From an uncultured Dehalococcoidales bacterium (lineage in GTDB: Bacteria > Chloroflexota > Dehalococcoidia > Dehalococcoidales > JAFGLR01), in the NCBI GenBank assembly GCA_964547925.1, contig CAZJQF010000003.1, forward strand, positions 11,875 to 46,468: 34,594 nt of DNA, given 5' to 3'. Below the pieces are notes generated by a model. It had not been told where the DNA came from and did not search any database. It was given only the letters and a program-made list of their open reading frames with translations. Positions 3,002 to 20,523 of the stretch are shown here, in pieces. Position numbers and translations under genes: made by a program. Numbering within the stretch: the stretch's first letter is position 1; every line of letters begins with the position of its first letter.

Positions 3002-4027
3002 TTACAATATTAAGGTAGCATCGCCGAAACTGTAAAACCGGTATTTTTCTTTGATAGCTTCAGCATACGCCCGGTCGATAAACTCTTTTCCGGCGAAAGC
3101 ACTGACCAGCATTAACAGGGTTGTTTTCGGCAGGTGGAAATTAGTAATCATCGCGTCGGTGACTAAGAATTGACGACCGGGTAGAATGAAAAGGTCGACC
3201 CATCCCGCAAAAGGTGTTAGAGGAAGTTGAATACGGGCTGCATGTTCCACGATTCTGGTGGCGGTAGTTCCCACACAAATAACCCTTCTGCCTTTAGCTT
3301 TTGCCTTTGAAATATTTACCGTGGTCTCGGCACTGATACTACCCAATTCCCGGTGAATAATATGCTGTTCCGGGTCTGCTTCCCTGACCGGCTGGAAAGT
3401 ATCGAGTCCGACGTGCAAAGTAACCGGTGTGAAAATAATTCCCTGGTTTTTTATTTTACCGATTAGTTCTTTGGTGAAGTGTAGACCGGCCGTTGGGGCG
3501 GCCACAGAACCTTCAGTTTTAGCATATACGGTCTGATAACGTTCCCTGTCGGATAACGGGGTGTGAATATAAGGAGGCAGCGGTATTTCCCCTATTTTAT
3601 CGATAAAGTCCTCGCTATCGAATTGAACTGTTCTAATACCTTCGTTTTTAGTATCAATGATTTTAACCGAACCGAAGATTTTATCGTAAGTATCTGTTAT
3701 GTCAACTATAGAGCCTGTTTTGAGGCTTTTCCCGGGTTTTACCATGGCTTCCCAGGTATTTTCTTTAATGCGCTGCAACAGCAGCATTTCGACCCGGCCG
3801 CCGGTTCCCGGTTTCCTGCCCTTCAGCCTGGCCGGGATGACACGGCTTTCGTTGTAAACAAGAACATCTCCCGGTTGTAAATATTCGATAATATCGTAAA
3901 AATACCGATGGGTAATCAATTGAGTGGAGCGATTTAAAACAAGTAATCTCGAATGGTCTCTCGGTTCGATGGGTGTTTGGGCAATATACTCAGGAGGTAA
4001 AACGTAATCGAAGTCAGCGGTCTTGAT
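3002..4027 (-). CDS. queA: S-adenosylmethionine:tRNA ribosyltransferase-isomerase (queuosine biosynthesis)
   Basis: The track ORF (3002-3919) starts at a TTG. The same frame stays open upstream and encodes the conserved QueA N-terminus (I)KTADFDYVLPPEYIAQTPIEPRDHSRLLVL. No ATG/GTG/TTG precedes it, so the start is provisionally placed at ATC 4027-4025. That gives 341 aa, a normal QueA length. The rest of the protein (AAPTAGLHFT, GTTATR, SFGDA) is canonical. Confidence 0.85.
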   Translation of the reverse strand: MKTADFDYVLPPEYIAQTPIEPRDHSRLLVLNRSTQLITHRYFYDIIEYLQPGDVLVYNESRVIPARLKGRKPGTGGRVEMLLLQRIKENTWEAMVKPGKSLKTGSIVDITDTYDKIFGSVKIIDTKNEGIRTVQFDSEDFIDKIGEIPLPPYIHTPLSDRERYQTVYAKTEGSVAAPTAGLHFTKELIGKIKNQGIIFTPVTLHVGLDTFQPVREADPEQHIIHRELGSISAETTVNISKAKAKGRRVICVGTTATRIVEHAARIQLPLTPFAGWVDLFILPGRQFLVTDAMITNFHLPKTTLLMLVSAFAGKEFIDRAYAEAIKEKYRFYSFGDATLIL

Positions 4028-4505
4028 GTTCTTCCTGCCTCTTATCCTGGTCTGCTTCCCACCGATATTTTTTATTCTGGCGTAGCGTATCGAGGCTACA
4101 AATTAAACACAGTCCGTTATGGCAGCATATTGTCCCTCCACATTCAGGGCAGCGCCATTTTCCTGCTTCCTCTTCCAAGAACTTTTCGATACCATTCTCT
4201 TTGATGAATTCAAGGTTTTCTATCATACTCATATGATACTTGGTGTGATAGCGTTTATCGAGGTCTTTTAATCTGTTGCAGGGAAATGTATCGCATTCAT
4301 AACAAAAACGCACAAGCCCTTTTGCCACCAGATCACATTGTCGTGACATGAAAGTACAGTTCTTACCACGCGGCCTGCAGCCAGGACAGTATCTCCTGGA
4401 GAATCCCTTTTTATTAAGGTCGGTTTTCATCGCCAGGTAGCTGACGCATAACCCGCAATTCATCCCGCAAGGGGCAATCAATTCTTTGGTAAATAATCTT
4501 TTCAT
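4014..4505 (-). CDS. Cysteine-rich DUF3795-like protein (163 aa)
   Basis: Reads MKRLFTKELIAPCGMNCGLCVSYL...CPGCRP...CYECDTFPCNRL...CPECGG, a DUF3795-type Cys pattern (family assigned from memory). Start set at ATG 4505 because the longer track ORF (to 4583) runs into the tRNA gene. Confidence 0.6.
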   Translation of the reverse strand: MKRLFTKELIAPCGMNCGLCVSYLAMKTDLNKKGFSRRYCPGCRPRGKNCTFMSRQCDLVAKGLVRFCYECDTFPCNRLKDLDKRYHTKYHMSMIENLEFIKENGIEKFLEEEAGKWRCPECGGTICCHNGLCLICSLDTLRQNKKYRWEADQDKRQEEHQDR

Positions 4506-4538
4506 TATTGAATATGAACGAGGCAGAAAATGGAACGG

Positions 4539-4626
4539 CGGAGAGAGTGGGATTCGAACCCACGGTCGCCGAAATAGCGACACACGCTCTCCAGGCGTGC
4601 CTGTTAGGCCACTCCAGCATCTCTCC
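4539..4626 (-). tRNA. tRNA-Ser (anticodon GGA), 88 nt, long variable arm, CCA not encoded
   Basis: The minus strand reads GGAGAGATGCTGGAGTGG...CACGC-CTGGAGA-GCGTG...long variable stem-loop...GTGGGTTCGAATCCCAC-TCTCTCC-G. It has a 7-bp acceptor stem and a GTTCGAATC T-loop. The anticodon loop is CT-GGA-GA. The discriminator G is followed by CCG. Confidence 0.9.
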
Positions 4627-6426: not shown

Positions 6427-6532
6427 GGAATCCTAAAGCTGTAATAAGCATAATTATTACATAAAAAAATATAGGAAGCTGTGAACCGTTACCTGTATAT
6501 GGTCACTTGGGTAGCGGGGAGCGAATAGTGAA

Positions 6533-6559
6533 ACCGACCGGTAAACGGTCGGTTTTTTT
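6533..6559 (+). terminator. Intrinsic terminator hairpin with U-tract
   Basis: ACCGACCG (6533-6540), loop GTAAA, CGGTCGGT (6546-6553), then a T-run to 6559. It is preceded by AAA, so the element is symmetric. It ends 6 nt before the ATG at 6566. Confidence 0.65.
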
Positions 6560-6565
6560 GTTGTT

Positions 6566-6862
6566 ATGAGAGTAGAACGTAGAAGAAGCAGTATTGAAAT
6601 CATCGCTGACATTTTGCGGTTAGGCGAAGCAGGCAAAACCGAAATAATGTACAGCGCGAATATGAGTTTCTTCCAGTTGCAGAAATATCTCAATTTCCTA
6701 TTGCAATTAGAACTTATCGATAAAGTTCATGTCGGCAATCCGGTGGTTACATACCGGGTTACTAAAAAAGGTTTACGGTTATTACAGAGTATTGACAGCA
6801 TATTACAAATACTGGAACTTAAAGAAGGCGAAGATCTTGGCCTGTTAGGAAAGTTACAGTAG
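6566..6862 (+). CDS. Small winged-helix DNA-binding protein (98 aa)
   Basis: Reads RRSSIEIIADILRLGEAGKTEIMYSANMSFFQLQKYLNFLLQLELIDK...YRVTKKGLRLL. This is the helix-turn-helix-wing layout of small archaeal/bacterial wHTH regulators (HTH_45-like; family recalled, not searched). Confidence 0.6.
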   Translation: MRVERRRSSIEIIADILRLGEAGKTEIMYSANMSFFQLQKYLNFLLQLELIDKVHVGNPVVTYRVTKKGLRLLQSIDSILQILELKEGEDLGLLGKLQ

Positions 6863-6892
6863 TTACTTCATTACTTGGAAGGAGAATACTTG

Positions 6893-7249
6893 ATGGCTGA
6901 GAAAAGAATGGTGATTGTTCCTGCAGAGCTGGTCAGGAAAATCGATGAGAACCGCGGCGATATGAGCCAGGCCGAATTTATCGAGTTTCTCATCGACAGC
7001 CGGTTAAAGGAAGAGCCCAAAGAAAAGAAAGAAACAACGGCTTACGCTACCAAAGAAGAGTTGCGTTCTTTCGAACAGGACATGAAAAAGCTGCTCAAAG
7101 GGTTTCTGGACTTCTTCGTCGCTTACGGTCTGGAACTGGGTAAAACGGCTATCAGTCCGGAATTTGAGGAATTAACCAGCAAACTGCAGGGTCTGGAAAA
7201 AGATTTGGGACCGGACGAAGGTAAAAGAGCCACCATCAAGTGGAAGTAA
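6893..7249 (+). CDS. Ribbon-helix-helix (CopG/Arc/MetJ-like) protein with a charged helical C-terminal extension (118 aa)
   Basis: MAEKRMVIVPAELVRKIDENRGDMSQAEFIEFLIDS fits a beta-strand/helix/helix RHH pattern. GGAAGGAG lies 8 nt upstream of ATG 6893, so the track's TTG start at 6875 sits inside the SD and is unlikely. Confidence 0.55.
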   Translation: MAEKRMVIVPAELVRKIDENRGDMSQAEFIEFLIDSRLKEEPKEKKETTAYATKEELRSFEQDMKKLLKGFLDFFVAYGLELGKTAISPEFEELTSKLQGLEKDLGPDEGKRATIKWK

Positions 7250-7274
7250 GTAAACTTTTTAAAGAAGTTTATGT

Positions 7275-7307
7275 AAGTCCCCCGAAAACCGGGGGACTTA
7301 TTTTTTT
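7275..7307 (+). terminator. Strong intrinsic terminator
   Basis: 10-bp GC-rich stem AAGTCCCCCG (7275-7284) / CGGGGGACTT (7290-7299), loop AAAAC, followed by A+TTTTTTT (to 7307). Confidence 0.85.
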
Positions 7308-7325
7308 GCCTCGCCCCAGCCTCAA

Positions 7326-7340
7326 TAGAACATTGTTCTA
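7326..7340. promoter_or_regulatory. Perfect 15-bp palindrome TAGAACAtTGTTCTA; candidate operator upstream of the GH3 cluster
   Basis: Perfect dyad centred on T7333. It lies between the terminator and the 7392 start and overlaps a weak promoter-like TCAATA-16 nt-CAGAAT. Confidence 0.45.
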
Positions 7341-7391
7341 GTACAGAATACCTTCCAAATCCTGAGATTCAGTGCCATAGTGTAAATCATT

Positions 7392-9626
7392 ATGGTAAAT
7401 ATTTTGATAGGCTGTCTAGGTTTCTTTATTACCCACGCTTTTGACGTTGTGGCCCTGAAAGGTATTAAAAAAGTAAAGCCGGTAATCTGGCTTATCGGAA
7501 ACGGACTAATTGCTTATTCATTAGTAATGTTATGCCTTTCCGAGCCCAATATAGGACTACCCGGCTGGTTAGCCTGGGTAGGCTGGCCTTTAGTCCTCTT
7601 TGGGATATATTTTCAGGTTGCTGCGATTACCACTGATTTACCGGTTAAGAAGACCTATGTCGAATCGGGAACCAGCAACCAGTTAATAAAGACGGGATTT
7701 TTTGCGATGGCCCGCCACCCCGGTGTCATCTTCTTCATTATATTAACAATCGGTTTAACACTCATTTCCGATTCGTTATTAATGCTAATTGCCGTAGCGG
7801 TATTCGGCGCCCTGGACATTATTCTCGTGACCGTTCAAGATGTGTATTTTTTCCCCAAGATGTTCGCCGGTTATGAAGAATACCGGAAAGAAACGCCAAG
7901 TATTATTCCGACGATTGAAAGCATCAAAGCTTGTATTAGAACTATAAAACGACCCCAGATAAAAACAAAGGAGGCACAAACAATGATCAGCACCGATAAC
8001 ATTTTTATTAACGGAAGCAAGGAAGAAATCTGGCAGCGGTATTGTGGTTTTCTCGATTTAAAAATGAATGATTTCATGAATATTCAGAGGAGACTGCTTC
8101 TTGAGCAAATCGAGCTGTTGAATAAGTGTGAGCTGAATACAAATATTATGAAAGGCGTGAAGCCCCATACCATTGAAGAGTTTCGTAATAAAGTACCTCT
8201 GACTACTTACAATGATTATAATGCGTTCTTTGCGAAACGCCGCAAAGGAATATTACCGGAGAAACCTTTAACCTGGATGCACACAGCCGGTCGTTCCGGG
8301 GAATTCACAAAGTGGATACCCGTTTCGGAAAGACGGTATAAAGCCATGGGTGATTATATTATTGCGGTAATCCTGTTAAGTACCAGTAAAAGACGCGGGG
8401 AATTCAATTTAAAGAAACACGATAGAATCCTTTACGCTCTGGCCCCGCCCCCCTTTATGACCGGAACCTGGGCAAGACGTCTTGAAGAGGCTTTACCCGT
8501 TAGTTTCCTCCCGTCACTCGATGACGCAGAAAAAATGTCCTTTTCGGATAGAACTCAGGAAGGCATTAAAATTGCCATGGAAGACGGCATGGAAATTATC
8601 GGGGGAATGTCGAGCGTCCTGCTTGCCATCGGTCAGAGTCTAAAGGAAAAGAAAAGCAAGATTGAATTGTTACCGTTATTGAAAAAACCCAAGAAACTCG
8701 GCCGGGTATTAAAGGGGATATTAAGAAGTAAATTAGCCGGTCGTGCTCTTTTGCCGAAAGACTTGTGGTCGATGAACGGTATTATGGCCGGCGGTGCGGA
8801 TACCGCAATTTACCGGGAAAAAATCAAGGAGATGTGGGGTAAACTTCCCCTGGATGTATACGCTTTCACGGAGGGCGGTCCGATTGCCGCACAGACCTGG
8901 GCTTATAACGGAATGACCTTCTTCCCCAGTCTCAATTTCTATGAATTTATACCGGAATCAGAAATGATTAAGTCGAAAATTGATCCCTTCTATACTCCAT
9001 CAACCGTTACATTGGATGAAGTCCAGCCGGGTAAAAATTACGAACTGGTTATCACCAATCTATTAGGCGGTCCCCTAGTCCGGTATCGTAACGGAGACAT
9101 CGTACAAATCACTTCATTACGGGATGAGAAATATGGTATAGATATTCCGCAGATGGAGTTCCATTCCAGAGCCGAGAATATTATCGATATCGCCGGGTTC
9201 ACCCGCCTGACCGAAAAAACAATCTGGAAAGCTATCGAAAACTCAGGTATAGACTATAAAGATTGGACTGCCCGTAGAGAAGGCAAGGATAAGTCCACGC
9301 TACATATTTATCTTGAACTGAATAAAAACGGTATCGATAAAGATGAAATTACCACCAGCATTCATCAAAAACTGGCGGAGCTGGATACGGACTATGCAAA
9401 TATCGAAGCTCTATTAAGTATGAAACCGTTACAGGTAACCGTATTACCCAACGGTGCGTTTAAGAATTACTCTGCGAGACAGCAGGCATCCGGTGCCGGT
9501 TTGGGGAAGTTAAAGCCGCCTCACATTAATCCGTCAGAACAGACACTCGAATCTCTGATTAATGGGTCAGAATTACTTACGGCTATCGTTCCGTCTCCGG
9601 ACGAATATGAAAAGGTAACCAAATAA
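7392..9626 (+). CDS. Fusion protein: N-terminal ICMT/PEMT-like membrane methyltransferase module plus a GH3-family acyl-acid amido synthetase (adenylating) module
   Basis: aa 1-190 are polytopic, with LIKTGFFAMARHPGVIFF...FFPKMFAGYEEYRKETPSIIP (the ICMT-family RHP...FG..Y..Y...T..IP signature). aa 198-744 carry GH3 signatures FRNKVPLTTYNDY, TAGRSGEFTKWIP, DVYAFTEGG and LVRYRNGDIV. An in-frame ATG at 7983 with AAGGAGG at 7968-7974 sits exactly at the domain junction. Confidence 0.75.
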   Translation: MVNILIGCLGFFITHAFDVVALKGIKKVKPVIWLIGNGLIAYSLVMLCLSEPNIGLPGWLAWVGWPLVLFGIYFQVAAITTDLPVKKTYVESGTSNQLIKTGFFAMARHPGVIFFIILTIGLTLISDSLLMLIAVAVFGALDIILVTVQDVYFFPKMFAGYEEYRKETPSIIPTIESIKACIRTIKRPQIKTKEAQTMISTDNIFINGSKEEIWQRYCGFLDLKMNDFMNIQRRLLLEQIELLNKCELNTNIMKGVKPHTIEEFRNKVPLTTYNDYNAFFAKRRKGILPEKPLTWMHTAGRSGEFTKWIPVSERRYKAMGDYIIAVILLSTSKRRGEFNLKKHDRILYALAPPPFMTGTWARRLEEALPVSFLPSLDDAEKMSFSDRTQEGIKIAMEDGMEIIGGMSSVLLAIGQSLKEKKSKIELLPLLKKPKKLGRVLKGILRSKLAGRALLPKDLWSMNGIMAGGADTAIYREKIKEMWGKLPLDVYAFTEGGPIAAQTWAYNGMTFFPSLNFYEFIPESEMIKSKIDPFYTPSTVTLDEVQPGKNYELVITNLLGGPLVRYRNGDIVQITSLRDEKYGIDIPQMEFHSRAENIIDIAGFTRLTEKTIWKAIENSGIDYKDWTARREGKDKSTLHIYLELNKNGIDKDEITTSIHQKLAELDTDYANIEALLSMKPLQVTVLPNGAFKNYSARQQASGAGLGKLKPPHINPSEQTLESLINGSELLTAIVPSPDEYEKVTK

Positions 9627-9642
9627 AATAAAAGGTATACTT

Positions 9643-10455
9643 GTGGATAATATTTACAAAGAAATATTTTCGAGGAATCTGGGCTTTTTCAATGAGTCTG
9701 AGCAGAACCTACTTCGCAATACCACAGTTGGTGTTGCAGGAGTAGGTGGGGTTGGCGGATTACTGGTCGAGAGATTGATACGGGCAGGGGTCGGTCATAT
9801 CAAATTTACCGACCCCGGCACGTTCGAAGTGAGTAATCTGAACAGGCAGTTCGGCTCAACTATCCATACTATTGATAAATACAAAGCCAGTGTCGTCTAT
9901 CAACAGGTAAGGGATATCAACCCGGAAGCTAAAGTTGAGTACTCCGAAAGAGGTTTGCAGGAAGAATCGGACATTGAGAAATTCGTGGAAGGCTGTGATG
10001 TAGTAGTCGATGAGATGGACACGACCGCATTTAAACAGTCGATTTTACTACAAAGAGCGAGCAGAAAACACGGAATAAAATATATTTTTTCATGTGCTTT
10101 AGGATTCGGGGGTCTACTGGCAATATTTTCATCGGAAGGACAGACGCTGGAAGAATATAATGGAATCACACCTGGAGCGGATCTCGATAAATTAGGTAAT
10201 TTAACGATATCGCTAGAAAAGATGGCTCCCGTTATGCCGTCTTATGCCAGGGCGATTCCATCAGGTTTAATAGAAAAGGTTATGAAAGGCGAAGCTCCGA
10301 TACCATCAAACAGTCTAGGGGTTGGTCTTACATCAATAATGACAGCAAGTGAAACCATCAATGTGATTTTGGGGAAAAGGGAGATATATTTAGCTCCCAA
10401 ATATGTTTATCTTGACCTTTTAGACTTACGGGTAGTTATAGGAACCATGTCCTGA
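9643..10455 (+). CDS. ThiF/MoeB/HesA-family E1-like adenylyltransferase (270 aa)
   Basis: Rossmann nucleotide motif VGVAGVGGVGGLLVERLIRAGVGHIKFTD followed by VSNLNRQ, and DVVVDEMD. I see no CxxC zinc pairs and no rhodanese domain. GTG start. Confidence 0.8.
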   Translation: MDNIYKEIFSRNLGFFNESEQNLLRNTTVGVAGVGGVGGLLVERLIRAGVGHIKFTDPGTFEVSNLNRQFGSTIHTIDKYKASVVYQQVRDINPEAKVEYSERGLQEESDIEKFVEGCDVVVDEMDTTAFKQSILLQRASRKHGIKYIFSCALGFGGLLAIFSSEGQTLEEYNGITPGADLDKLGNLTISLEKMAPVMPSYARAIPSGLIEKVMKGEAPIPSNSLGVGLTSIMTASETINVILGKREIYLAPKYVYLDLLDLRVVIGTMS

Positions 10456-10534
10456 TATTTGAGTTTATTTTAATAACCGTGCAATACTAATACATTATTG
10501 TACTAAATTTGGTTTACTATATCGGAGATAAGCT

Positions 10535-12379
10535 ATGAAAACTTGGATTTGTACTACTCTCTCCAGCTTTTTTAGTCCAATGCAAGGGGCTGCACGGTTA
10601 CATGCGTATGTAAAAAATAAAGGATACGAAGTATGTTTAAAGGATTATAATCAGAATGCTTACTTCTGGCTGTTGTCACGGAAAAATTTAGAACAAGCCT
10701 GCCAGACCTTAAGCTATTCCATAGACTCATCCTCACGCAATCGATATTACCGGGAAGATATAGGCGGTATTTTAACTTTTGCCTCAACCAATAGGATTAA
10801 TGAGTTAATTACAAAGATTACAGGGCAAAAAGAAATACCCCATAAAGACGTATTTTATAACTTACTGGGATTACAGGAACAGATAATTTCAGAAGTTGAG
10901 CAATCAAGGCAGTTATTGGATAGTCATTTTTTAAGCTTACCGCCAGAGGTATTTCTTACAAATTACAGGACATTGCTCGTTGGTAAAGCCATTTTAGACG
11001 CTGTTTATTATCCTGCTATCCTTGATATGGGATTAGGTTTTTTTGGTAATGCCTACTCCACAAGTGCGGAAGATATCTTTCGAGCAACATCGGACAATAG
11101 GTTTAATTTCACTATTCCCTACTTTCAACAGGTAATGCTTTCAGAATTAGAAAAAGAACAACCTGACTTAATCGGCATCTCAATCACGCATACATCCGAA
11201 TTTGTTCCCGCGCTGACCCTTGCAAGGATGGTTAAACATACCAACAAGAAAATCCATATATGTTTAGGAGGATCAACTGTAACTGAAGTTGGTTACAGGA
11301 TTTCTAAAAACCCGCGTTTGTGGGAGCTATTTGACAGCATGGTGCTTGGCCCAGGCGAAGTGGCTTTCAGCGAACTCATTGAAGCGGTCTCAGCGAATAA
11401 AAACCTGGAGAGAGTTCCTAACCTTATATATAAAAATAACGGAGTAATCAGCAGAAGTTCGGAGGAACATGAGTTTGATATCAATGACGCTTGCACCCCG
11501 GAGTATGTATCAGTAAGGCCCAAAACGCCTCTGCCTCTCGAAACCGCATCTGGTTGTTACTGGGGGAAATGTATATTTTGTTATTATCCAAGACAGGGAG
11601 CTGCCGATATTAATACAGGATTTAATAAAAAACGAATACGTGACATCGACCTGGTTCTCCAAGATATACGTAAACTTAAAGATACGTATGATCCTGGATA
11701 TATCGGAATTACAGATTCATCTTTACATCCGAATCGAATTGAGCAAATAGTCGATTATAATAACAAAAATAGTAATCCGGTGAAATTTGCCGCGTTTATC
11801 CGTCTGGAAAAAGAATTTAAATCTGCCGAGTTCTGTAAAAAGATAGCAGCCGGTGGCTTTCTAGGAGGACAGGCCGGATTAGAATCGGGATCTCAGCGAG
11901 TTAACGATATAATCAATAAAGGAGTTAACCTTGAAGATGCTGAAATTATTATACGCAATTTATATAAAGCAGGTTTACTGACTCATTTATATACACTTGT
12001 AGGTACACCGGGTGAGACGGCTCAAAATGCCGGTATGACGCGCGACTTTATTAAACGTCTTCATAAGGAACTTATTTTGGGTTGGCAAATTTATTCATTA
12101 TATGTCGTCGAGAATGGTCCGCTTAGTGAAAGAGCAGAAGAATTTGGCCTTAAAGTGTATCCATTATCCGACGAGTATTTGTCTCAATTTACAGTATTTT
12201 CCGTTGATAAAGGATTATCTCAAAGTGAGAGTACCACCTTGGCTTTGCGTTTTTCAGAAGAGCTCAGGCCCTTAATCAGTGAGTTGCACAATATTATGGA
12301 TATAGAGTCTCATAAGATATTCTTATTGACACAAAAAGCAAATGGATACGGTTTAACAAATACTTATCTTGGGTCATAA
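10535..12379 (+). CDS. B12-binding-domain radical SAM protein (614 aa)
   Basis: Cobalamin-binding-like Rossmann segments (ARLHAYVKNKGYEVCLKDYN ... PDLIGISITHTSEFVPALTLARMVKHTNKKIHICLGGSTVT). The cluster motif is SGCYWGKCIFCYY. Downstream GLESGSQRV is a radical SAM core motif. GGAG lies 7 nt upstream of the ATG. Confidence 0.8.
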   Translation: MKTWICTTLSSFFSPMQGAARLHAYVKNKGYEVCLKDYNQNAYFWLLSRKNLEQACQTLSYSIDSSSRNRYYREDIGGILTFASTNRINELITKITGQKEIPHKDVFYNLLGLQEQIISEVEQSRQLLDSHFLSLPPEVFLTNYRTLLVGKAILDAVYYPAILDMGLGFFGNAYSTSAEDIFRATSDNRFNFTIPYFQQVMLSELEKEQPDLIGISITHTSEFVPALTLARMVKHTNKKIHICLGGSTVTEVGYRISKNPRLWELFDSMVLGPGEVAFSELIEAVSANKNLERVPNLIYKNNGVISRSSEEHEFDINDACTPEYVSVRPKTPLPLETASGCYWGKCIFCYYPRQGAADINTGFNKKRIRDIDLVLQDIRKLKDTYDPGYIGITDSSLHPNRIEQIVDYNNKNSNPVKFAAFIRLEKEFKSAEFCKKIAAGGFLGGQAGLESGSQRVNDIINKGVNLEDAEIIIRNLYKAGLLTHLYTLVGTPGETAQNAGMTRDFIKRLHKELILGWQIYSLYVVENGPLSERAEEFGLKVYPLSDEYLSQFTVFSVDKGLSQSESTTLALRFSEELRPLISELHNIMDIESHKIFLLTQKANGYGLTNTYLGS

Positions 12380-12556
12380 CTATTTATCAAAGGAAGCATC
12401 GTTGCTGCAATTGATATCAGGTATTAGACCATTACAGGTCTGTATTTCGTTAGAGTATCGAAAACATTAAGTCGTTTTAGTTACTTCCGCATAATATTGT
12501 CCGTCATCAAATGGGTATTTAGTACTATGGTCGCACGTGGCATTTAATTATTAGTG

Positions 12557-12585
12557 TTGACAATTAAGCAATTCTAGGCAATAAT
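12557..12585 (+). promoter_or_regulatory. sigma70-like promoter (TTGACA-17 nt-AATAAT) for the GGDEF/HD-GYP gene
   Basis: TTGACA at 12557-12562, 17-nt spacer, AATAAT at 12580-12585. It lies 32 nt upstream of the 12618 start. Confidence 0.55.
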
Positions 12586-12617
12586 CATTCTAAAAGACTT
12601 AAGTTGAAGAAAAACAA

Positions 12618-15113
12618 TTGAACATATATACATCTATACCGCTTTTCAGCGCAATAATATATTTCGTTCTGATATTTTTTGTTTTAAACTCCGGGGTCAG
12701 TAGTACTAAACGAGCCTTCATTCTTTACTTATCTGCAACAATGCTCTGGAGCATCTCGGCATTCATTATTCACGGTAATTTTTTCCCCCAGAATACCCTA
12801 TTGATTAACCAGATAGTAGTTGCAACTGGTTTTATAGTGCCTATTGCATATTATTATTTTATATCTGCATTCACCAATAAAGTCTCCCCACTATTGATCA
12901 TATTAAGTATTTTTTGTTTGGTGACTGTATTGATATTAGATTTCGGTGGGTTTATAGTAAAAAGCTCAGTCGTGGTTGATAACGTACTTTACGTTAAGAT
13001 GAGCATTTTCTTTATGTTAAGTTATCTGGTAACGTTTGTGTTTGTCGGTTTTGGTGTATATTATTTGGTAATCAAATTCCGGAAATCAAACGATCCTTTA
13101 GAACGCAATAGAGTTTCTTACTTGATATTCGGTGTGATCGTGCTAATGGTTTTTAATATCGGTAACTTTTTTGATGCTACATCCAAATATCCCATTGACC
13201 ATGTTGGAAATGTTTTTTACGCTCTGATAATAACCTATACCATCATGAGATATCAGTTATTGAATATCAAGTTTATCTTCCGGAAAGGCTTGACCTACGT
13301 ATTGTTATTACTACCCATGGTGGCTCTTTATGTAGGAATCCTGATTGCCGGTCTGCATTATTTCCCCAGTATTTCGCCCGTTGCAATCGGTATATTTACT
13401 ACGGTAATGGTACTGTTATTGGTTATCGCTTTCCGTACTCTGAATCACGGGGCACAGGAATTAGTCGACCATATATTTTACCGTGAGACATACAAGCACC
13501 GTCAGCTCTTATTAAATATCAGTAATAAACTGGGCGGCGTAATTAACCTGAGCCAGTTAGCCGATGAGATATTACCAACTCTTTGTAAAGCCCTGAGAAT
13601 TTCGCGTGCCCAGTTACTCCTGAGGGATAATAACGGAGGGTTTTCCGCTCAATTTGCTTATCCCGAGATCGAAGAAACGGAAACGGCTCTCGCACTGGAT
13701 TCGGATAATCCGATAATAGGTTGGTTGGAAAAGAAAAACAGACCGTTTGAATTAAGAGAATTGGAAAATATTCCGGAGTTCAAAGGTTTATGGCAATCCG
13801 AGATAGATGAAGTTACCTCAACGAAACTGGGACTGTTTTCTCCGGTTAAAAATAAAGGTGTTCTAACCGGGATATTTGCATTAGGGAAAAAACAGTCCGG
13901 TGTATATTCACAGGAAGACCTCGAGATGACAATGGCGGTGGCCGGTCAGGCCGGTCTGATTATCGAAAATGCCCAGCATTATTCACAGGCATTGTTAAAA
14001 GCCAATACCGACGGACTAACCGGGCTTTATAACCACCGGCATTTCCATGAAAGGTTGGAACAGGAAATTGCCCGCAGTTCACGTTTCGGGACGGTGTTTT
14101 CAGTCATAATTGCGGATATCGATTTATTTAAAGTCTATAACGATAATTACGGGCATCTTGCCGGTGATGAGGTTCTCCGGCGTATCGGAGAATATATCAA
14201 GAGTTCAATCCGGAGCATCGATATTGCTGCCCGGTACGGCGGCGAAGAGTTTGGCGTTATTTTACCGGAAACACGTTTAATGGATGCCCAGGTTGTCGGA
14301 GAACGTATTCGTAAAACAATTGAAGCAAAGACTAATTCACGTGCCATGCCCGTGACCATAAGTGTCGGATTGGCCAGCTGGCCGATAGATGGTGTTATGA
14401 AAGAAGAACTTATCAACCGGGCAGATAAAGCTTTGTACTTTGCTAAACAAAGCGGGAGAAACCGCGTGTGTTTATCCACGGATGTCGTTGATAAAAATCC
14501 ATTACAAAGTGAAAAAGAACTGGAAGTTAATCCCAAATCGCTGAGTATGATTTATGCTCTTGCGGCGACTGTCGATGCGAAAGACCATTATACCTACGGT
14601 CATTCACGGAAAGTAAGCGAGTATGCCGTAGCTCTCGCAGAGGGGGCAAAACTGCCCCAAGAGAAACATTCCATAATCAGGGCTGCCGGATTATTGCACG
14701 ATATCGGAAAAATCGGTATTCCGGATTCTATTTTGAATAAAAAGGAACCCCTTTCCCGTGACGAGTGGGAACCGATAAAAGCCCATCCTCAATTAGGCGT
14801 GGCCATAATCAGACATATTGTGGATTTAACCGATTGTCTGCCGGCTATTTTACACCACCACGAGCACTTTGACGGCAGCGGTTATCCGGCCGGTTTAAAG
14901 GGCAAAAATATACCTATAGAAGCACGCATTTTATCAATAGCCGATGCCTATGAGGCGATGACTTCGCCGCGCGCGTATAGAAAACAGATGACGACCGATG
15001 AAGCGATTGTCGAATTAAAGAAGTGTGCGGGAACACAATTCGACCCGGAGTTAGTCCAGGTTTTCTGCAAACTTCTGGAAACCACACCATCGTGGCGTAC
15101 TACTCAGGGCTAG
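12618..15113 (+). CDS. Membrane sensor protein: 7TM N-terminal domain, GAF, GGDEF diguanylate cyclase, HD-GYP phosphodiesterase
   Basis: About 270 aa of TM helices (HisKA_7TM-like) and a GAF-like region. GGDEF domain: DGLTGLYNHRHF and RYGGEEFGVIL, with RSID (RxxD I-site) 5 residues upstream. HD-GYP domain: HSRKV...LLHDIGKIGIP...HHHEHFDGSGYPAGL. TTG start. Confidence 0.85.
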   Translation: MNIYTSIPLFSAIIYFVLIFFVLNSGVSSTKRAFILYLSATMLWSISAFIIHGNFFPQNTLLINQIVVATGFIVPIAYYYFISAFTNKVSPLLIILSIFCLVTVLILDFGGFIVKSSVVVDNVLYVKMSIFFMLSYLVTFVFVGFGVYYLVIKFRKSNDPLERNRVSYLIFGVIVLMVFNIGNFFDATSKYPIDHVGNVFYALIITYTIMRYQLLNIKFIFRKGLTYVLLLLPMVALYVGILIAGLHYFPSISPVAIGIFTTVMVLLLVIAFRTLNHGAQELVDHIFYRETYKHRQLLLNISNKLGGVINLSQLADEILPTLCKALRISRAQLLLRDNNGGFSAQFAYPEIEETETALALDSDNPIIGWLEKKNRPFELRELENIPEFKGLWQSEIDEVTSTKLGLFSPVKNKGVLTGIFALGKKQSGVYSQEDLEMTMAVAGQAGLIIENAQHYSQALLKANTDGLTGLYNHRHFHERLEQEIARSSRFGTVFSVIIADIDLFKVYNDNYGHLAGDEVLRRIGEYIKSSIRSIDIAARYGGEEFGVILPETRLMDAQVVGERIRKTIEAKTNSRAMPVTISVGLASWPIDGVMKEELINRADKALYFAKQSGRNRVCLSTDVVDKNPLQSEKELEVNPKSLSMIYALAATVDAKDHYTYGHSRKVSEYAVALAEGAKLPQEKHSIIRAAGLLHDIGKIGIPDSILNKKEPLSRDEWEPIKAHPQLGVAIIRHIVDLTDCLPAILHHHEHFDGSGYPAGLKGKNIPIEARILSIADAYEAMTSPRAYRKQMTTDEAIVELKKCAGTQFDPELVQVFCKLLETTPSWRTTQG

Positions 15114-16729: not shown

Positions 16730-18055
16730 ATGACATCGGTAGAATTGAAGACTCAAACCGCTACTATTTCCGAGGATGAACCCCCCAGTAAAACCACGGC
16801 CTGGAGGAGTACGCAAGAAGACGAACCTCCGGGCAAAAGTGCTGTCCCCAAACGCAGGTATTTTGCTCATGTTTCCGACCAGGATTGGACGAATTGGAAA
16901 TGGCAATTCAAGAATCGTATCACTACTGTCGATGAATTAGCGAAATACATTCCCCTTTCAGTCGAAGAACAGATTCAACTCAGGCTGGTTTCTATCCATT
17001 ACCCTATGGCGATTACGCCTTATTATTTATCGCTTATCGACCCTGATGACGCGGCGGATCCCATCAGAATACAAGCTATTCCCAATGTTTTAGAAGTCAC
17101 GATGGGTTGTATGGGTATGGAAGACCCGCTGGAAGAGAAAAGGGATTCCGTAGTACCCGGACTGGTGCACCGCTATCCTGACCGTGTTTTAATGGTACTG
17201 ACGAATGTCTGTCCTATGATGTGCCGCCACTGTACCCGAAAGCGTGAGTGGAAGCATGGCACCTGGATCAGGCCGCAAGAAGAAGTGGATGCGATGTTAA
17301 CCTACATCCGTCGGCATAAGAGTGTTCGTGACGTTATTATTTCCGGCGGGGACCCGTTAACGTTGTCAACGCGGCGGCTCGAAGAGGTAATTTCTGCCTT
17401 GCGAAGAATCAACCATGTGGAAATTATTCGTATCGGCAGCCGTTATCCGGTAGTATTACCATTCCGTATCGATAACGAACTATGTGATATGTTATCCGAG
17501 TACGGACCGATATGGTTGAATACTCATTTTAATAATCCCCGCGAAGTTACCCCGGATTCGGCAAAAGCCTGCGACCGGTTGTTGAGGGCCGGCGTTCCGG
17601 TAAATAACCAGACCGTTTTGTTACGCGGTGTCAACGATTCGGTGGAAACAATGAAAAAACTGGTGCATAACCTGTTGCGTATAAAAGTTCGTCCCTACTA
17701 CTTATTCCAGTGCGATGAGGTGCAGGGCACCGAGCACTTGCGCACTCCTGTTGAAACCGGTATTAAAATTATCGATGGTTTAAGAGGACATACCTCCGGG
17801 CTGGCGGTACCCGCCTTTGTTATAGACTTACCTTTTGGCGGCGGTAAGGTGCCTTTGCAGCCGAACTATGTATTGGCCCAGGATAACGGTGAGTTGTTGT
17901 TGCGGAATTATAAACATAATCTTTATCGTTTTCGTAATCCTAAAAATCAATCAATAACCGCATCAATACAAAATAACGAGCATAAGTTAACTGAAGCACT
18001 TGTAACACAATATGCGTTAGAAGGGAAACCAGATGCGGATAGGGTTATCGTATGA
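16730..18055 (+). CDS. kamA: Lysine 2,3-aminomutase (KamA-family radical SAM/PLP enzyme)
   Basis: CPMMCRHCTRK (CxxxCxxC), GGDPL, YYLFQCDEVQGTEHLR and VIDLPFGGGKVPL (PLP-lysine motif). Both substrate-binding Asp positions are retained (QCD, IDLP). About 40-aa N-terminal extension before the conserved W..W.WQ..N block. Confidence 0.85.
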   Translation: MTSVELKTQTATISEDEPPSKTTAWRSTQEDEPPGKSAVPKRRYFAHVSDQDWTNWKWQFKNRITTVDELAKYIPLSVEEQIQLRLVSIHYPMAITPYYLSLIDPDDAADPIRIQAIPNVLEVTMGCMGMEDPLEEKRDSVVPGLVHRYPDRVLMVLTNVCPMMCRHCTRKREWKHGTWIRPQEEVDAMLTYIRRHKSVRDVIISGGDPLTLSTRRLEEVISALRRINHVEIIRIGSRYPVVLPFRIDNELCDMLSEYGPIWLNTHFNNPREVTPDSAKACDRLLRAGVPVNNQTVLLRGVNDSVETMKKLVHNLLRIKVRPYYLFQCDEVQGTEHLRTPVETGIKIIDGLRGHTSGLAVPAFVIDLPFGGGKVPLQPNYVLAQDNGELLLRNYKHNLYRFRNPKNQSITASIQNNEHKLTEALVTQYALEGKPDADRVIV

Positions 18056-19040
18056 TTTAAAAGAAGCAATTACTTCCGGAAGAGATAATCTTCCGGAAGA
18101 TGCTTTCGAAGAATACGATCATCCGGCGACCATCAATTATATTGCTTCTGCCATCGAACATGCCGGTAATGAAGTCGTCAGGTTGGGTGGCGGAAGACAA
18201 TTCATTGAAAACATTCTCCGTGAGAAAACGGACATGGTTTTTAATATTTCAGAAGGAAGGGGTACTTTTCGCAGCCGAGAGGCTCAAGTACCCTCAATTC
18301 TGGAGATGCTTGACATTCCCTATACCGGTGCAGACCCCGAATGTCTGGCGGTATGTTTGGATAAGCCGTTAACCAAACAACTGGTGACTCTTGCCGGACT
18401 GGCAACACCTCCCTGGATAGTTATAAAAAACCGGGAGGAGTTACATTCAGTAAAATGGGATAAAGTTGCGTTCCCATTAATTGTCAAACCCGCTTTCGAA
18501 GGTTCCAGTAAAGGGGTTCGCCTGAATTCTGTAGTGAGGAACAAAGAACAGGCTATTGAAGTAACCGGAAAGACGCTGGATCTTTACCGCCAGCCGGTAA
18601 TGCTGGAAGGTTTTGTTCAAGGCGACGAAGTAACTGTCGGAATCGTGGGTAACTCTCCACCCAGGATAGTCGGTATCATGCGTATTCTGCCTAAAAAACA
18701 GACGGAGCATTTTGTATATTCTCTTGAAGTAAAACGGGACTGGCAAAACATGGTGGAATACGAATGCCCGGCCCGCCTGGATAAATCCATTCTAGAAAGA
18801 ATAGCCGCCGACAGTATAAAAGCCTTTACCATGTTAGAATGCCGTGATTTTACCAGAATTGATTTTCGTATCGGTGCCGACGGGACTCCTTATTTTATCG
18901 AAATTAACCCGTTACCCGGATTGGGTGATTACAGCGACCTGATAATTATGGCGATAAAAATGGGCTGGAGTCATGAATCGGTAATACAAGCTGTACTTGA
19001 AGCGGCATTGGAGAGATACCGGTTGTGTGCGCAAAAGTAA
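18033..19040 (+). CDS. D-alanine--D-alanine ligase-family ATP-grasp enzyme (paralogue 1)
   Basis: 335 aa. Pre-ATP-grasp N-domain (RIGLSYDL...EEYDHPATINYIASAIEHAGNEVVRLG) and ATP-grasp core (FPLIVKPAFEGSSKGV, MLEGFVQGDEVTVGIVGN, YFIEINPLPGL). Overlaps kamA by 23 nt. Confidence 0.8.
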   Translation: MRIGLSYDLKEAITSGRDNLPEDAFEEYDHPATINYIASAIEHAGNEVVRLGGGRQFIENILREKTDMVFNISEGRGTFRSREAQVPSILEMLDIPYTGADPECLAVCLDKPLTKQLVTLAGLATPPWIVIKNREELHSVKWDKVAFPLIVKPAFEGSSKGVRLNSVVRNKEQAIEVTGKTLDLYRQPVMLEGFVQGDEVTVGIVGNSPPRIVGIMRILPKKQTEHFVYSLEVKRDWQNMVEYECPARLDKSILERIAADSIKAFTMLECRDFTRIDFRIGADGTPYFIEINPLPGLGDYSDLIIMAIKMGWSHESVIQAVLEAALERYRLCAQK

Positions 19041-20029
19041 CTATAGTATATAACGACCCGATTCCCGGCCGGTATCAAAATACCGGTGAAGAAAAAGCCG
19101 TCCTCGGCGTTTTAGACTCGGTTAATGCCGTAAAAAAGGCCTTAACGGAACTCCGTCATGAAGTGAACCTTTTGCCTTTAGCTTTGCCTTTAGAACAGGC
19201 TCTCACGAAGTTAGACAACCTGTCTACGGATATCGTATTTAATCTCTTCGAAGGTTTTCCGGGCTTTCCGGAAACGGAGATGCTTATTCCTCAGTATTTA
19301 GCGAAAAATAATATTATTTACACCGGTTGTTCAAGTGAATCACTGACACTGGCTCTAGATAAAGCCAAAACTAAAGAATATTTAATGAAAGCAGGAATCG
19401 CGACACCCGATTTTCAACTGATGACGGCGGATACTCTTGCTTCTTTTCGGTTGAAATATCCCTGCATAATCAAACCATTCGGTGAAGATGCCAGCCATGG
19501 TTTGAACGAAAACAGTGTCGTTTATGATTTCGCCGGTCTGACGAGGCAGGTAAATCTAGTTTGTTCACAATACGGCGGGCAGGCGCTGGTTGAAGAATTA
19601 ATCGAAGGCCGGGAATTTAATGCCACAGTTATGGGTAACGTCGAGCGTATAGTTTTACCGGTTGGAGAAATCACCTATAATTTACCGCCGGGAAAACCAA
19701 AAATACTGACATTCGATGCCAAGTGGGAGCAGAATAGCTTATATTATAAAAGCACCCCGGTTATCTGTCCTGCGAAGATAGATGACTCGGAGAAAGAACG
19801 TATCAGAAAAGTAGCTTTGGAAGCATTCAAGATAATTATTGGCCGGGGCTATGCCAGAGTGGATATGCGTTTAGATAACCAAAATAGAGTAAATGTTCTT
19901 GAAGTTAATCCGAACCCCGATATTTCACCCAACACCGGTGCGGCCCGGCAGGCCAAAGCTGCCGGGATGACTTATGCTCAGTTTATCGATAGAATAATTT
20001 CGTTGGCGCGGGAAAAAGGGAAGGTATGA
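19025..20029 (+). CDS. D-alanine--D-alanine ligase-family ATP-grasp enzyme (paralogue 2)
   Basis: 334 aa with the same architecture (VTIVYND...NAVKKALTELRHEVNLLPL; YPCIIKPFGEDASHGL; VEELIEGREFNATVMGN; VLEVNPNPDISP). GTG start; overlaps the previous gene by 16 nt. Confidence 0.8.
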   Translation: MCAKVTIVYNDPIPGRYQNTGEEKAVLGVLDSVNAVKKALTELRHEVNLLPLALPLEQALTKLDNLSTDIVFNLFEGFPGFPETEMLIPQYLAKNNIIYTGCSSESLTLALDKAKTKEYLMKAGIATPDFQLMTADTLASFRLKYPCIIKPFGEDASHGLNENSVVYDFAGLTRQVNLVCSQYGGQALVEELIEGREFNATVMGNVERIVLPVGEITYNLPPGKPKILTFDAKWEQNSLYYKSTPVICPAKIDDSEKERIRKVALEAFKIIIGRGYARVDMRLDNQNRVNVLEVNPNPDISPNTGAARQAKAAGMTYAQFIDRIISLAREKGKV

Positions 20030-20523
20030 TACCGAAACCGGAGAATATAATTATCTCTTTAACAAAAGTTCACAAGTCCGCCGTGATGGATATCTTACGC
20101 GTCACTTCGGAATTCAAGCCTATGGAAGTGGATACAGCCGAAGATCTTATAGACTTTTACTTAAAGGATGGTCTTTCCTCAGGGTACCATCATCTGGCAG
20201 CAATAACAGAGTCAGAAGTAACAGGTTATATCTGTTATGGACCGACACCATTAACGGAAAGTACTTGGGATGTTTACTGGATGGCAGTTACACCCGGGAA
20301 AAAGGGACAGGGTATCGGTACTTCATTATTAAGAACCGCGGAAAATGAGATTAGCAAGCGAAAGGGACGGATAATACTTATCGAGACCTCAGATATAGCG
20401 TCCTATGAACCTACCAGAAAATTTTACGAGCATATGGGCTACGAGGTAATAAGCCGAATTCCAGATTTTTATGCCTCAGGTGACGGTCTGGTTGTCTTCC
20501 ATAAAAGACTGGACCGGGTTTAG
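20026..20523 (+). CDS. GNAT-family N-acetyltransferase (165 aa)
   Basis: WMAVTPGKKGQGIGTSLL (Q/R-x-x-G-x-G acetyl-CoA motif) and FYEHMGYE. ATGA start/stop overlap with the upstream gene. Confidence 0.8.
   Translation: MIPKPENIIISLTKVHKSAVMDILRVTSEFKPMEVDTAEDLIDFYLKDGLSSGYHHLAAITESEVTGYICYGPTPLTESTWDVYWMAVTPGKKGQGIGTSLLRTAENEISKRKGRIILIETSDIASYEPTRKFYEHMGYEVISRIPDFYASGDGLVVFHKRLDRV

Follow-up and report, generated by a model that had tools for sequence, protein, structure and literature searches.

A conserved GH3 module with a variable gene slot in the Dehalococcoidia and its possible role in the synthesis of tailored acyl amides

A 34,594-nt stretch of DNA from an uncultured Dehalococcoidales bacterium of the Chloroflexota (assembly GCA_964547925.1, contig CAZJQF010000003.1, positions 11,875-46,468) carries three adjacent genes whose predicted products are an ICMT-like::GH3 fusion, a ThiF-type E1-like enzyme and a B12-binding radical S-adenosylmethionine (SAM) enzyme. 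The whole stretch is referred to as the window, and all window coordinates count from its first letter; among named organisms, its proteins have their nearest relatives in metagenome-assembled genomes of Dehalococcoidales. The three open reading frames (ORFs) lie on the plus strand as ORF1 (7392-9626, 744 aa), ORF2 (9643-10455, 270 aa) and ORF3 (10535-12379, 614 aa), with gaps of 16 and 79 nt between them and 238 nt between ORF3 and the next gene. An earlier note, made from the sequence alone, had described them as a separate co-directional unit, bounded by a terminator and by a spacer with the next gene's promoter, and had named the same domains. Both the layout and the domain calls were recovered. 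The terminator, which the note placed at 7275-7307, was found at 7273-7301 (plus strand, a 12-bp stem with 7 G-C pairs and a T-run); a promoter scan gave the downstream promoter at 12557-12585 (plus strand, sigma-70-like, TTGACA-17-AATAAT, 11 of 12 positions matching); and the unit has a putative promoter of its own at 7350-7381. Pfam, AlphaFold and Foldseek agree with the domain calls, that of ICMT at superfamily level. No terminator was detected inside the ORF1-ORF3 unit, the 79-nt and 238-nt spacers hold no convincing small ORF, and neither the precursor peptide nor the GG-ending ORF of ThiS/MoaD type that the note had reported as lacking from the cluster occurs in 7240-12640. Comparison with related loci nevertheless shows that the trio, whose co-conservation the note had proposed to check, is not what is conserved: the constant module consists of regulators, a palindrome with promoter, a membrane protein, a GH3 protein, a variable slot and a sensor.

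The N-terminal part of ORF1 (7392-7976, plus strand) is a membrane domain in which residues ~40-148 match PEMT with 26.4 bits (cut-off 25), DUF1295 with 22.7 bits (cut-off 20.4) and ICMT with 20.4 bits, the last below its cut-off. Taken alone, the domain scores 29.9 bits against PEMT (PF04191, cut-off 25), and of 37 homologues all match PEMT, 26 match DUF1295 and 21 match ICMT (PF04140). A profile of this family aligns with the Methanosarcina ICMT structure 4A2N over residues 60-192 (E 7e-6), including the cofactor-binding region with its RHPxY-type motif and C-terminal FGxxYxxY...P helix; R108-H109-P110, Y161, Y164, P169 and P173 are invariant across the family, and the EE pair of ICMT is replaced by QD. 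Because ICMT falls just below and DUF1295 above its cut-off, only the superfamily level is secure. The domain securely belongs to the ICMT/PEMT superfamily and is predicted to be an integral-membrane SAM methyltransferase, O- and N-targets being indistinguishable from sequence. The AlphaFold model of ORF1 (pLDDT 81.7 overall) has helical membrane segments with pLDDT 73-90, a disordered linker at residues 186-199 and a GH3 body.

The remainder of ORF1 (7977-9626, plus strand) matches GH3 (PF03321), GH3_M (PF23571) and GH3_C (PF23572), the models for the N-terminal, middle and C-terminal GH3 domains, with 36.1, 55.9 and 37.0 bits, the cut-off being 23.6 for each. When the ORF1 model was compared with the PDB by Foldseek, the top seven structures were plant GH3 enzymes, among them GH3.15, GH3.5, GH3.12 and JAR1 (E 9e-19 to 1e-17). 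The nucleotide-binding motifs HTAGRSGEFTKW, YAFTEG and RYRNGD align with those of JAR1 (SSGTSxGxxK-like, YxxSEG-like and YRxGD), and T298, G300, T493, E494, R564 and Y565 are invariant in the GH3 family of ORF1. Motifs and model place the domain in the GH3 acyl-acid amido synthetase family of the ANL superfamily, with a predicted amide-forming activity.

ORF2 is a stand-alone ThiF-type E1-like enzyme, matching PF00899 with 133.6 bits over residues 10-263 and displaying the glycine-rich nucleotide-binding motif GVGGVGG, the motif SNLNRQ and, within VVVDEMD, a DxxD motif. Its best NCBIfam model is PRK08223, a 'hypothetical protein' (176 bits, cut-off 266), and it remains below cut-off for all NCBIfam equivalogs, including ThiF, MoeB and UbaA. 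The best PDB sequence match is 9EGB, a 265-aa ThiF-type protein for which we found no paper, and TcdA structures are among the top PDB matches. ORF2 resembles TcdA/CsdL and MccB-type proteins, which likewise stand alone and have no ubiquitin-like partner, in its size of ~270 aa and its E1 Rossmann core; it differs from them in that its locus shows no tRNA-modification or microcin context and in its scores below the equivalog cut-offs. E2, rhodanese and zinc-finger domains were not detected in it. A sulfur-carrier role in thiamine, molybdopterin or small archaeal modifier protein (SAMP) routes was rejected, given the equivalog scores and the lack of a GG-ending carrier ORF nearby. An anti-phage E1-E2 protein of the Cap2 type, as found in cyclic-oligonucleotide-based anti-phage signalling systems (CBASS), was rejected as well, since the PADLOC match covers the E1 part only, E2 is lacking and the protein has only 270 aa; PADLOC gave no further defence matches in the locus.

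ORF3 is by domains and fold a cobalamin-dependent (class B) radical SAM enzyme, its activity being predicted from the matches to Radical_SAM (PF04055, 47.8 bits) and B12-binding (PF02310, 33.6 bits, cut-off 32.1) and from an AlphaFold model (pLDDT 90.1) whose top Foldseek folds are TsrM, CysS, OxsB and MgmA. The family's best PDB sequence match is OxsB (5UL2, E 3.7e-7). The cluster motif is C341-YWGK-C346-IF-C349, that is CX4CX2C rather than CX3CX2C, as had been read earlier, and is invariant in 25 of 25 family members; the motif GCYWGKCIFCYYP is invariant or nearly so in the same alignment. The spacing had been singled out as non-canonical, which it is, but it is not without precedent, the cobalamin radical SAM enzyme OxsB having CX4CX2C in a solved structure (PMC9204698). 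Since OxsB shares the spacing, CX4CX2C is to be seen as a family trait with precedent, and we rejected it as a novelty of ORF3. OxsB, of oxetanocin A biosynthesis, has both this motif and the cobalamin-domain plus radical SAM core in common with ORF3; the similarity is very weak (~16% identity), and OxsB acts on a nucleotide together with the HD-domain protein OxsA, no partner of that type being seen here. Among named radical SAM subfamilies PhpK (TIGR04479) scores best, with 106 bits against a cut-off of 600, and assignments to PhpK, RiPP (ribosomally synthesised and post-translationally modified peptide) C-methyltransferases, the ladderane-lipid radical SAM enzymes, HpnJ/HpnR and BchE were rejected, all being far below cut-off. 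As TsrM and CysS fit the fold equally well, the chemistry cannot be assigned to methylation or rearrangement.

Several features around the trio had escaped the earlier note: a riboswitch, two regulator genes, a palindrome with promoter, and a sensor gene that turns out to be the constant partner of GH3. Upstream on the plus strand, the aptamer of a cyclic di-GMP (c-di-GMP)-II riboswitch occupies 6465-6548 (Rfam RF01786, full-length match, 65.1 bits, gathering threshold 53.5), and a terminator-like hairpin (6530-6556) overlaps its 3' part. It is followed by an HTH_45/Sso10a-like winged-helix gene (6566-6862; Pfam HTH_45 77.3 bits, NCBIfam Sso10a_fam 66.2 bits) and by orf124 (6875-7249, 124 aa, true start probably the ATG at 6890), which has no Pfam or NCBIfam match, and the terminator at 7273-7301 closes this riboswitch-regulator unit. 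The perfect palindrome TAGAACATTGTTCTA (7326-7340, no strand) and, on the plus strand, the putative ORF1-operon promoter TTCCAA, 17 nt, TGcCATAGT (7350-7381) come next. Downstream of ORF3, the sensor gene (12618-15113, plus strand) encodes a seven-transmembrane (7TM) protein of the architecture HisKA_7TM-GAF-GGDEF-HD(GYP), assigned by Pfam and with GGEEF and HD...GYP motifs visible.

For comparison, one genome per GTDB species was scanned and 405 genomes were found to hold a relative of ORF1; the best 80 of these loci were studied with up to 10 kb on each flank where the contig permits, in total 1.19 Mb, and 79 of them are labelled Dehalococcoidia/Chloroflexota. For the radical SAM enzyme of the window type, seven encoding contigs and 25 metagenome loci were inspected. 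The material consists of metagenome-assembled genomes and metagenome contigs from one class, many of the contigs being truncated, and the co-occurrence statistics ignore relatedness. The constant neighbourhood in the 80 loci often starts with a PilD prepilin peptidase and continues with HTH_45, orf124, the membrane protein, GH3, the variable slot and the 7TM signalling protein, the palindrome and promoter standing between orf124 and the membrane-protein gene. By comparison, the exact order of the trio recurs only in L081, a JGI contig with 75-77% identity, and in reordered form in the distant contig L102. In L001, whose GH3 is 79% identical to that of the window, ThiF is followed by an unrelated DUF4070-type B12-binding radical SAM enzyme, and in L165, a 58% relative, the membrane::GH3 fusion and ThiF occur with no radical SAM gene.

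The fusion in ORF1 is real but a minority state. Membrane protein and GH3 are fused in 10 of the 80 loci, encoded by separate adjacent genes in about 46, and the membrane protein is absent from 20; beyond these ten, the fusion is found in the window, L081 and L165. The window fusion is a Rosetta-stone version of a conserved membrane-protein/GH3 pair. In L016 two stop codons interrupt the membrane-domain frame (10001-10582), which makes it a probable pseudogene, and in L015 and L039 a single stop separates membrane protein and GH3; these three loci look like snapshots of fusion or fission of the pair.

What fills the slot is variable and yet restricted. Bona fide FabF genes number 18 in the 1.19 Mb, 16 of them within 1.8 kb of GH3 (binomial P 2.6e-13); the corresponding figures are 12 and 12 for ThiF (P 4e-8) and 11 and 9 for B12-binding radical SAM genes of at least three unrelated subfamilies (P 2.5e-7). 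The slot FabF reaches 562 bits (cut-off 494), and in some genomes the slot is empty. The neighbourhood check proposed for the trio failed for the trio as such, while ThiF and B12-binding radical SAM genes proved to be concentrated next to GH3 in many arrangements, which supports the functional link that had been assumed among the genes. The slot of L057 holds a transposase of insertion-sequence type (rve integrase core, 12245-13180) between GH3 and sensor, consistent with the slot being a recombination-prone site. Of the loci with sufficient downstream sequence, nearly all have a homologue of the sensor behind GH3 in the same orientation. Its HisKA_7TM-GAF core is constant, while the outputs are mostly GGDEF-HD(GYP), otherwise HisKA_3/HATPase and in some cases HisKA-HATPase-REC; the more distant GH3 loci L083 and L094 follow the same sensor pattern. 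Since the outputs are swapped and the sensor stays constant, GH3 is tied to what the sensor module senses and not to its output.

ThiF adjoins GH3 in only 12-13 of the 80 loci, and its adjacency takes at least five forms. It lies downstream of GH3 in the window, L001, L081, L165 and seven GTDB loci, upstream of it in L056, L068 and L102, after a split membrane-protein gene in L033 and L092, on the opposite strand behind a radical SAM gene in L044 and L059, and convergent with a GH3-kinase operon in L094; in the GH3-free L091 it accompanies a stand-alone PEMT-like gene.

Full-length orthologues of ORF3 with 47-76% identity are common in Chloroflexota; none lies in the 80 GTDB GH3 loci, and the inspected contigs show the window type beside or near the GH3 module in seven arrangements. 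The order GH3-ThiF-radical SAM of the window is found in L081, ThiF-GH3-radical SAM in L102 and GH3-radical SAM-sensor in L104; the gene is inverted within the slot in L096, follows the sensor in L106, lies directly upstream of HTH_45 in L087 and is divergent from GH3 in L114. L083 has it 6.4 kb from GH3. Elsewhere the same family has other neighbours: in L085, L088 and L101, GH3-free loci of other bacteria, it occurs with the N-acyl-amino-acid synthase FeeM (95.8 bits), PlsC-type acyltransferases, a MacB/FtsX ABC transporter and a protein resembling LolA, and in L089 beside a set of LPG_synthase_TM, nonribosomal peptide synthetase and glycosyltransferase genes. The contexts with FeeM recall FeeM/OlsB-type clusters for N-acyl amino acids and aminolipids, although FeeM, acyltransferase and transporter are all lacking from the window cluster. 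It is mainly because GH3 and FeeM, non-homologous enzymes of the N-acyl-amino-acid type, neighbour the same radical SAM family that an acyl-amide substrate is proposed; judged by context and analogy, one type of N-acyl amino acid would come from GH3 in the one setting and from FeeM in the other, and the radical SAM enzyme may act on it. Two PilZ-domain genes and a receiver-domain gene (7097-8275) lie directly upstream of the FeeM/LolA-like/radical SAM/ABC cluster of L085, a Gram-negative metagenome contig, and form a second, independent link of the radical SAM family to c-di-GMP signalling.

The palindrome core AGAAC-N3-GTTCT is present in 49 of the 80 GH3 loci, where chance would give about 1.1; it mostly stands 45-105 nt ahead of the membrane-protein/GH3 start, and nine more loci have the variant TAGAAC-TAT[CT]-TTCTA at the matching position. 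Among the 69 loci whose upstream sequence suffices, 58 encode HTH_45 ahead of GH3, and orf124, where present in the GH3 loci, always goes together with HTH_45. With the variant counted, the palindrome occurs in all 58 loci that have HTH_45 and in 2 of the 11 that do not (Fisher 1e-9). It is followed by the positionally conserved block ACCTTCC[CA]A-N17-20-TGnCATAGT, a putative -35 and extended -10 of the operon, although a generic promoter scan did not flag 7350-7381. Palindrome and block are probably operator plus promoter, of a kind that appears to be undescribed. In the window the ATG of ORF1 (7392) follows the predicted promoter within ~10 nt, and the mRNA would therefore be near-leaderless. 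HTH_45 is the candidate regulator of the GH3 promoter, with predicted binding to the palindrome, and orf124 is possibly a second DNA-binding protein; a ribbon-helix-helix-like N-terminus is a guess from reading the sequence, for which Pfam gave no support even at E up to 10. The palindrome also stands immediately upstream of the TTGACA-N18-TATCAT promoter of the ORF3 orthologue in L105 and L114, which argues for co-regulation of the radical SAM gene with GH3. The riboswitch is confined to few lineages: a model built from four copies of it detects it in seven of 84 sources, upstream of HTH_45 in the window, L001, L081, L061, L009 and L077 and directly upstream of GH3 in L074, and it was rejected as a general feature of the module. 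Six loci (L004, L005, L009, L010, L046 and L078) have upstream of GH3 the conserved sequence AATACCTTCCC, complementary over 10-11 nt to GGGAAGGTATT, the Shine-Dalgarno region directly before the membrane-protein/GH3 start codon. In transcripts that read through from upstream, such pairing could hide the ribosome-binding site; the window lacks the partner sequence.

To our knowledge, OlsH is the sole bacterial GH3 enzyme of characterised function, and the statement that bacterial GH3 homologues are essentially uncharacterised is outdated on its account. OlsH, a lyso-ornithine-lipid synthetase of the planctomycete Singulisphaera acidiphila, uses ATP to convert free fatty acid to N-acyl ornithine (PMC12493201). 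Its operon includes the lipid N-methyltransferase OlsG (PMC12493201; PMC12971839), which reviews relate to phospholipid N-methyltransferases (PMC12971839), and the alpha/beta-hydrolase O-acyltransferase OlsI (PMC12493201). The OlsH-OlsG-OlsI operon is the closest known system, in that a bacterial GH3 with conserved nucleotide motifs is coupled to a lipid methyltransferase. It belongs to a different phylum; its methyltransferase is OlsG, whereas the methyltransferase-like partner here is a PEMT/ICMT-type membrane domain that forms part of the GH3 protein or is encoded next to it; and for OlsH there is no description of the partners ThiF, B12-binding radical SAM enzyme, FabF, HTH_45, operator and 7TM-GAF sensor. 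ORF1 matches the OlsH model NF052613 with 27.3 bits (cut-off 620) in its C-terminal part only, and OlsH was rejected as an orthologue and kept as an analogy. An OlsI-type alpha/beta-hydrolase is absent from the window cluster and from the slot of the 80 loci. Any resemblance of the locus to an OlsH-type system would be limited to the first step, and it falls outside the OlsH family. The plant enzymes JAR1, GH3.5, GH3.12/PBS3 and GH3.15, which adenylate a carboxylate and join it to an amino acid, match best in structure and have the three ATP/AMP motifs in common with ORF1, yet they are only 16-20% identical to the GH3 domain of ORF1 and are soluble, single-domain and operon-free, whereas the latter is membrane-tethered and linked to bacterial signalling genes. 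No paper describing GH3, ThiF and a B12-binding radical SAM enzyme in combination was found in our literature search, in agreement with the earlier statement that no such pathway is described.

The reading that we prefer, to which we would give a probability of about 45%, sees the cluster as the biosynthetic arm in a conserved locus of the Dehalococcoidia, where it would make a tailored membrane-associated acyl amide, that is a lipid or lipophilic conjugate akin to an N-acyl amino acid. The earlier proposal of a membrane-associated pathway acting on a carboxylate fits these data. Judging from fold, motifs and the analogy to OlsH, the carboxylic acid that GH3 adenylates would be hydrophobic, probably a fatty acid, and the enzyme would then join it to an amine or amino acid. 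The fused PEMT/ICMT-like domain would use SAM to methylate the membrane-embedded substrate or product; ThiF, as an ATP-dependent carboxylate-adenylating enzyme, may activate a remaining carboxylate for a further step; and the OxsB-like radical SAM enzyme may perform a radical C-H functionalisation, methylation or rearrangement. ThiF and the radical SAM enzyme would be optional tailoring enzymes of the variable slot, their optionality being evident from the comparative genomics. Expression could be governed by a circuit in which the membrane sensor, by its domains a diguanylate cyclase and HD-GYP phosphodiesterase, sets c-di-GMP, read by the riboswitch and passed through the regulators and the operator to the acyl-amide pathway; each component is observed, and the wiring is what we infer from their order and kind.

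Several observations weigh against this reading. An O-acyltransferase of the OlsI or OlsA type is not in the window cluster, and the match to the OlsH model is only 27 bits against a cut-off of 620. The slot FabF could be a housekeeping copy, and the conserved synteny may partly reflect shared ancestry, all GH3 loci being from one class, the Dehalococcoidia. ThiF is anticorrelated with the membrane-protein gene, occurring in 2 of 56 loci with it and 9 of 20 without it (Fisher 5e-5); it may belong to a different pathway variant, the window lineage with both genes being atypical. An orthologue of ThiF in L093 has neither GH3 nor any relevant neighbour, and orthologues of the radical SAM enzyme lack informative neighbours in L090, L095, L097, L099, L107 and L115. 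As for the circuit, the riboswitch is found in only seven of 84 sources, a terminator lies between riboswitch and operon, and the DNA-binding roles given to HTH_45 and orf124 at the palindrome are putative.

Alternatively, the GH3 product may be mainly a signal: the enzyme would make or inactivate a hormone-like lipophilic conjugate sensed by the 7TM-GAF protein, and ThiF and the radical SAM enzyme would diversify this signal between lineages. The constancy of the sensor after GH3 in nearly every locus, with swapped outputs, speaks for this, as do the dedicated regulators and operator. Tailoring genes that differ between close relatives, such as L001 and the window with their unrelated radical SAM enzymes, are also as expected for a diversifying signal. 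Plants pair hormone conjugation with carboxyl methylation of the same hormones, to which GH3 and the methyltransferase-like domain offer a parallel. However, the ligand of the 7TM-GAF protein is purely hypothetical, sensors beside lipid-remodelling genes can equally detect the state of the membrane, the sensor has its own promoter, and the contexts with FabF, LolA-like protein, ABC transporter and acyltransferases point to bulk lipid handling. On balance a signalling role is unlikely, if worth keeping in mind. A stronger version, which we consider rather improbable, combines signal and control in a self-contained circuit: a hormone-like acyl-amide ligand made by the membrane-anchored GH3 and tailored, according to lineage, by ThiF and swappable radical SAM enzymes, the 7TM-GAF protein as its dedicated receptor acting on c-di-GMP or a phosphorelay, and feedback through riboswitch, HTH_45/orf124 and palindrome, as a counterpart of GH3 hormone conjugation in plants.

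It could also be that the three genes lie side by side with no function in common, ThiF and the radical SAM gene having entered a slot that is prone to recombination. The exact trio is rare, close relatives differ in what the slot holds, and the L057 slot contains a transposase. The GC content at third codon positions is 0.34 in ORF3 and 0.39-0.56 in the other window genes measured, which together with the slot swapping between close relatives suggests recent acquisition of the ORF3 gene. Random insertion does not sit well with the restriction of recurrent slot genes to three types, which are almost never seen elsewhere in the flanks of +/-10 kb, nor with ThiF and the window-type radical SAM gene staying by GH3 through many rearrangements, including upstream and divergent ones. 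The GH3-type operator directly before the radical SAM promoter in L105 and L114 and the short, terminator-free gaps in the window argue in the same direction, and we hold mere adjacency to be doubtful.

In pathways of the microcin C7 type, peptide C-termini are adenylated by ThiF-type enzymes. A last reading draws on this precedent, on the methylation of protein C-terminal carboxylates by ICMT enzymes and on a weak resemblance of ORF3 to RiPP C-methyltransferase models (TIGR03975, 80.6 bits, cut-off 282; ApyD, 38.8 bits): ThiF and the radical SAM enzyme, whether or not GH3 takes part, would act on the C-terminus of a ribosomally made peptide or protein in a RiPP- or ubiquitin-like manner, the precursor being encoded elsewhere. 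It is very improbable, as all RiPP model scores are far below cut-off, as neither the cluster nor its surroundings hold an ORF that resembles a precursor or ends in GG, as peptide exporter, protease and RiPP recognition element (RRE)-containing protein are all absent, the last two from every neighbourhood, as RiPP precursor families are missing from all the radical SAM and ThiF neighbourhoods that were inspected, and as GH3 enzymes are known only on small acids.

The locus is less surprising than the earlier note held, because a bacterial GH3 function and the CX4CX2C spacing are already documented and the trio is lineage-specific. As an acyl-amide pathway based on GH3 it would be of a new form, with a real chance of a more unusual nature should the neighbouring receptor have the product as its ligand. 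The GH3 clade of the Dehalococcoidia extends over about 400 species-level genomes, with different partners from those of OlsH and a much richer conserved context, and the acyl-amide reading offers a testable pathway hypothesis for a widespread, mostly uncultured group of anaerobes. If the product is an amide resembling an amino lipid, Chloroflexota membranes would gain a new lipid class together with tailoring chemistry of E1-like and OxsB-like cobalamin radical SAM enzymes, and the CX4CX2C family would gain a substrate class. Sensor, second messenger, riboswitch, regulators, operator and target operon would make up an unusually complete c-di-GMP circuit within less than 9 kb, and the 15-bp palindrome, kept across many species, is suited to binding assays.

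Some further genes of the window may be mentioned. An acetate-kinase-family gene and a holo-acyl-carrier-protein synthase gene lie ~5 kb upstream of the cluster on the minus strand (1373-2890), and L081 has an acyl-carrier-protein gene (PP-binding) as well, at 246-2193; these genes may be relevant to the supply of acyl substrate. Downstream, a lysine-2,3-aminomutase-like radical SAM gene (LAM_C), two ATP-grasp genes of the D-Ala-D-Ala-ligase type and a 165-aa ORF (16730-20523, plus strand) apparently form one operon and may represent a beta-amino-acid or peptide-ligation pathway. Finally, on the minus strand the tRNA-Ser(GGA) gene (4537-4626) overlaps the called 5' end of a DUF3795 ORF (4014-4583), and the true start of that ORF is therefore to be placed further downstream.

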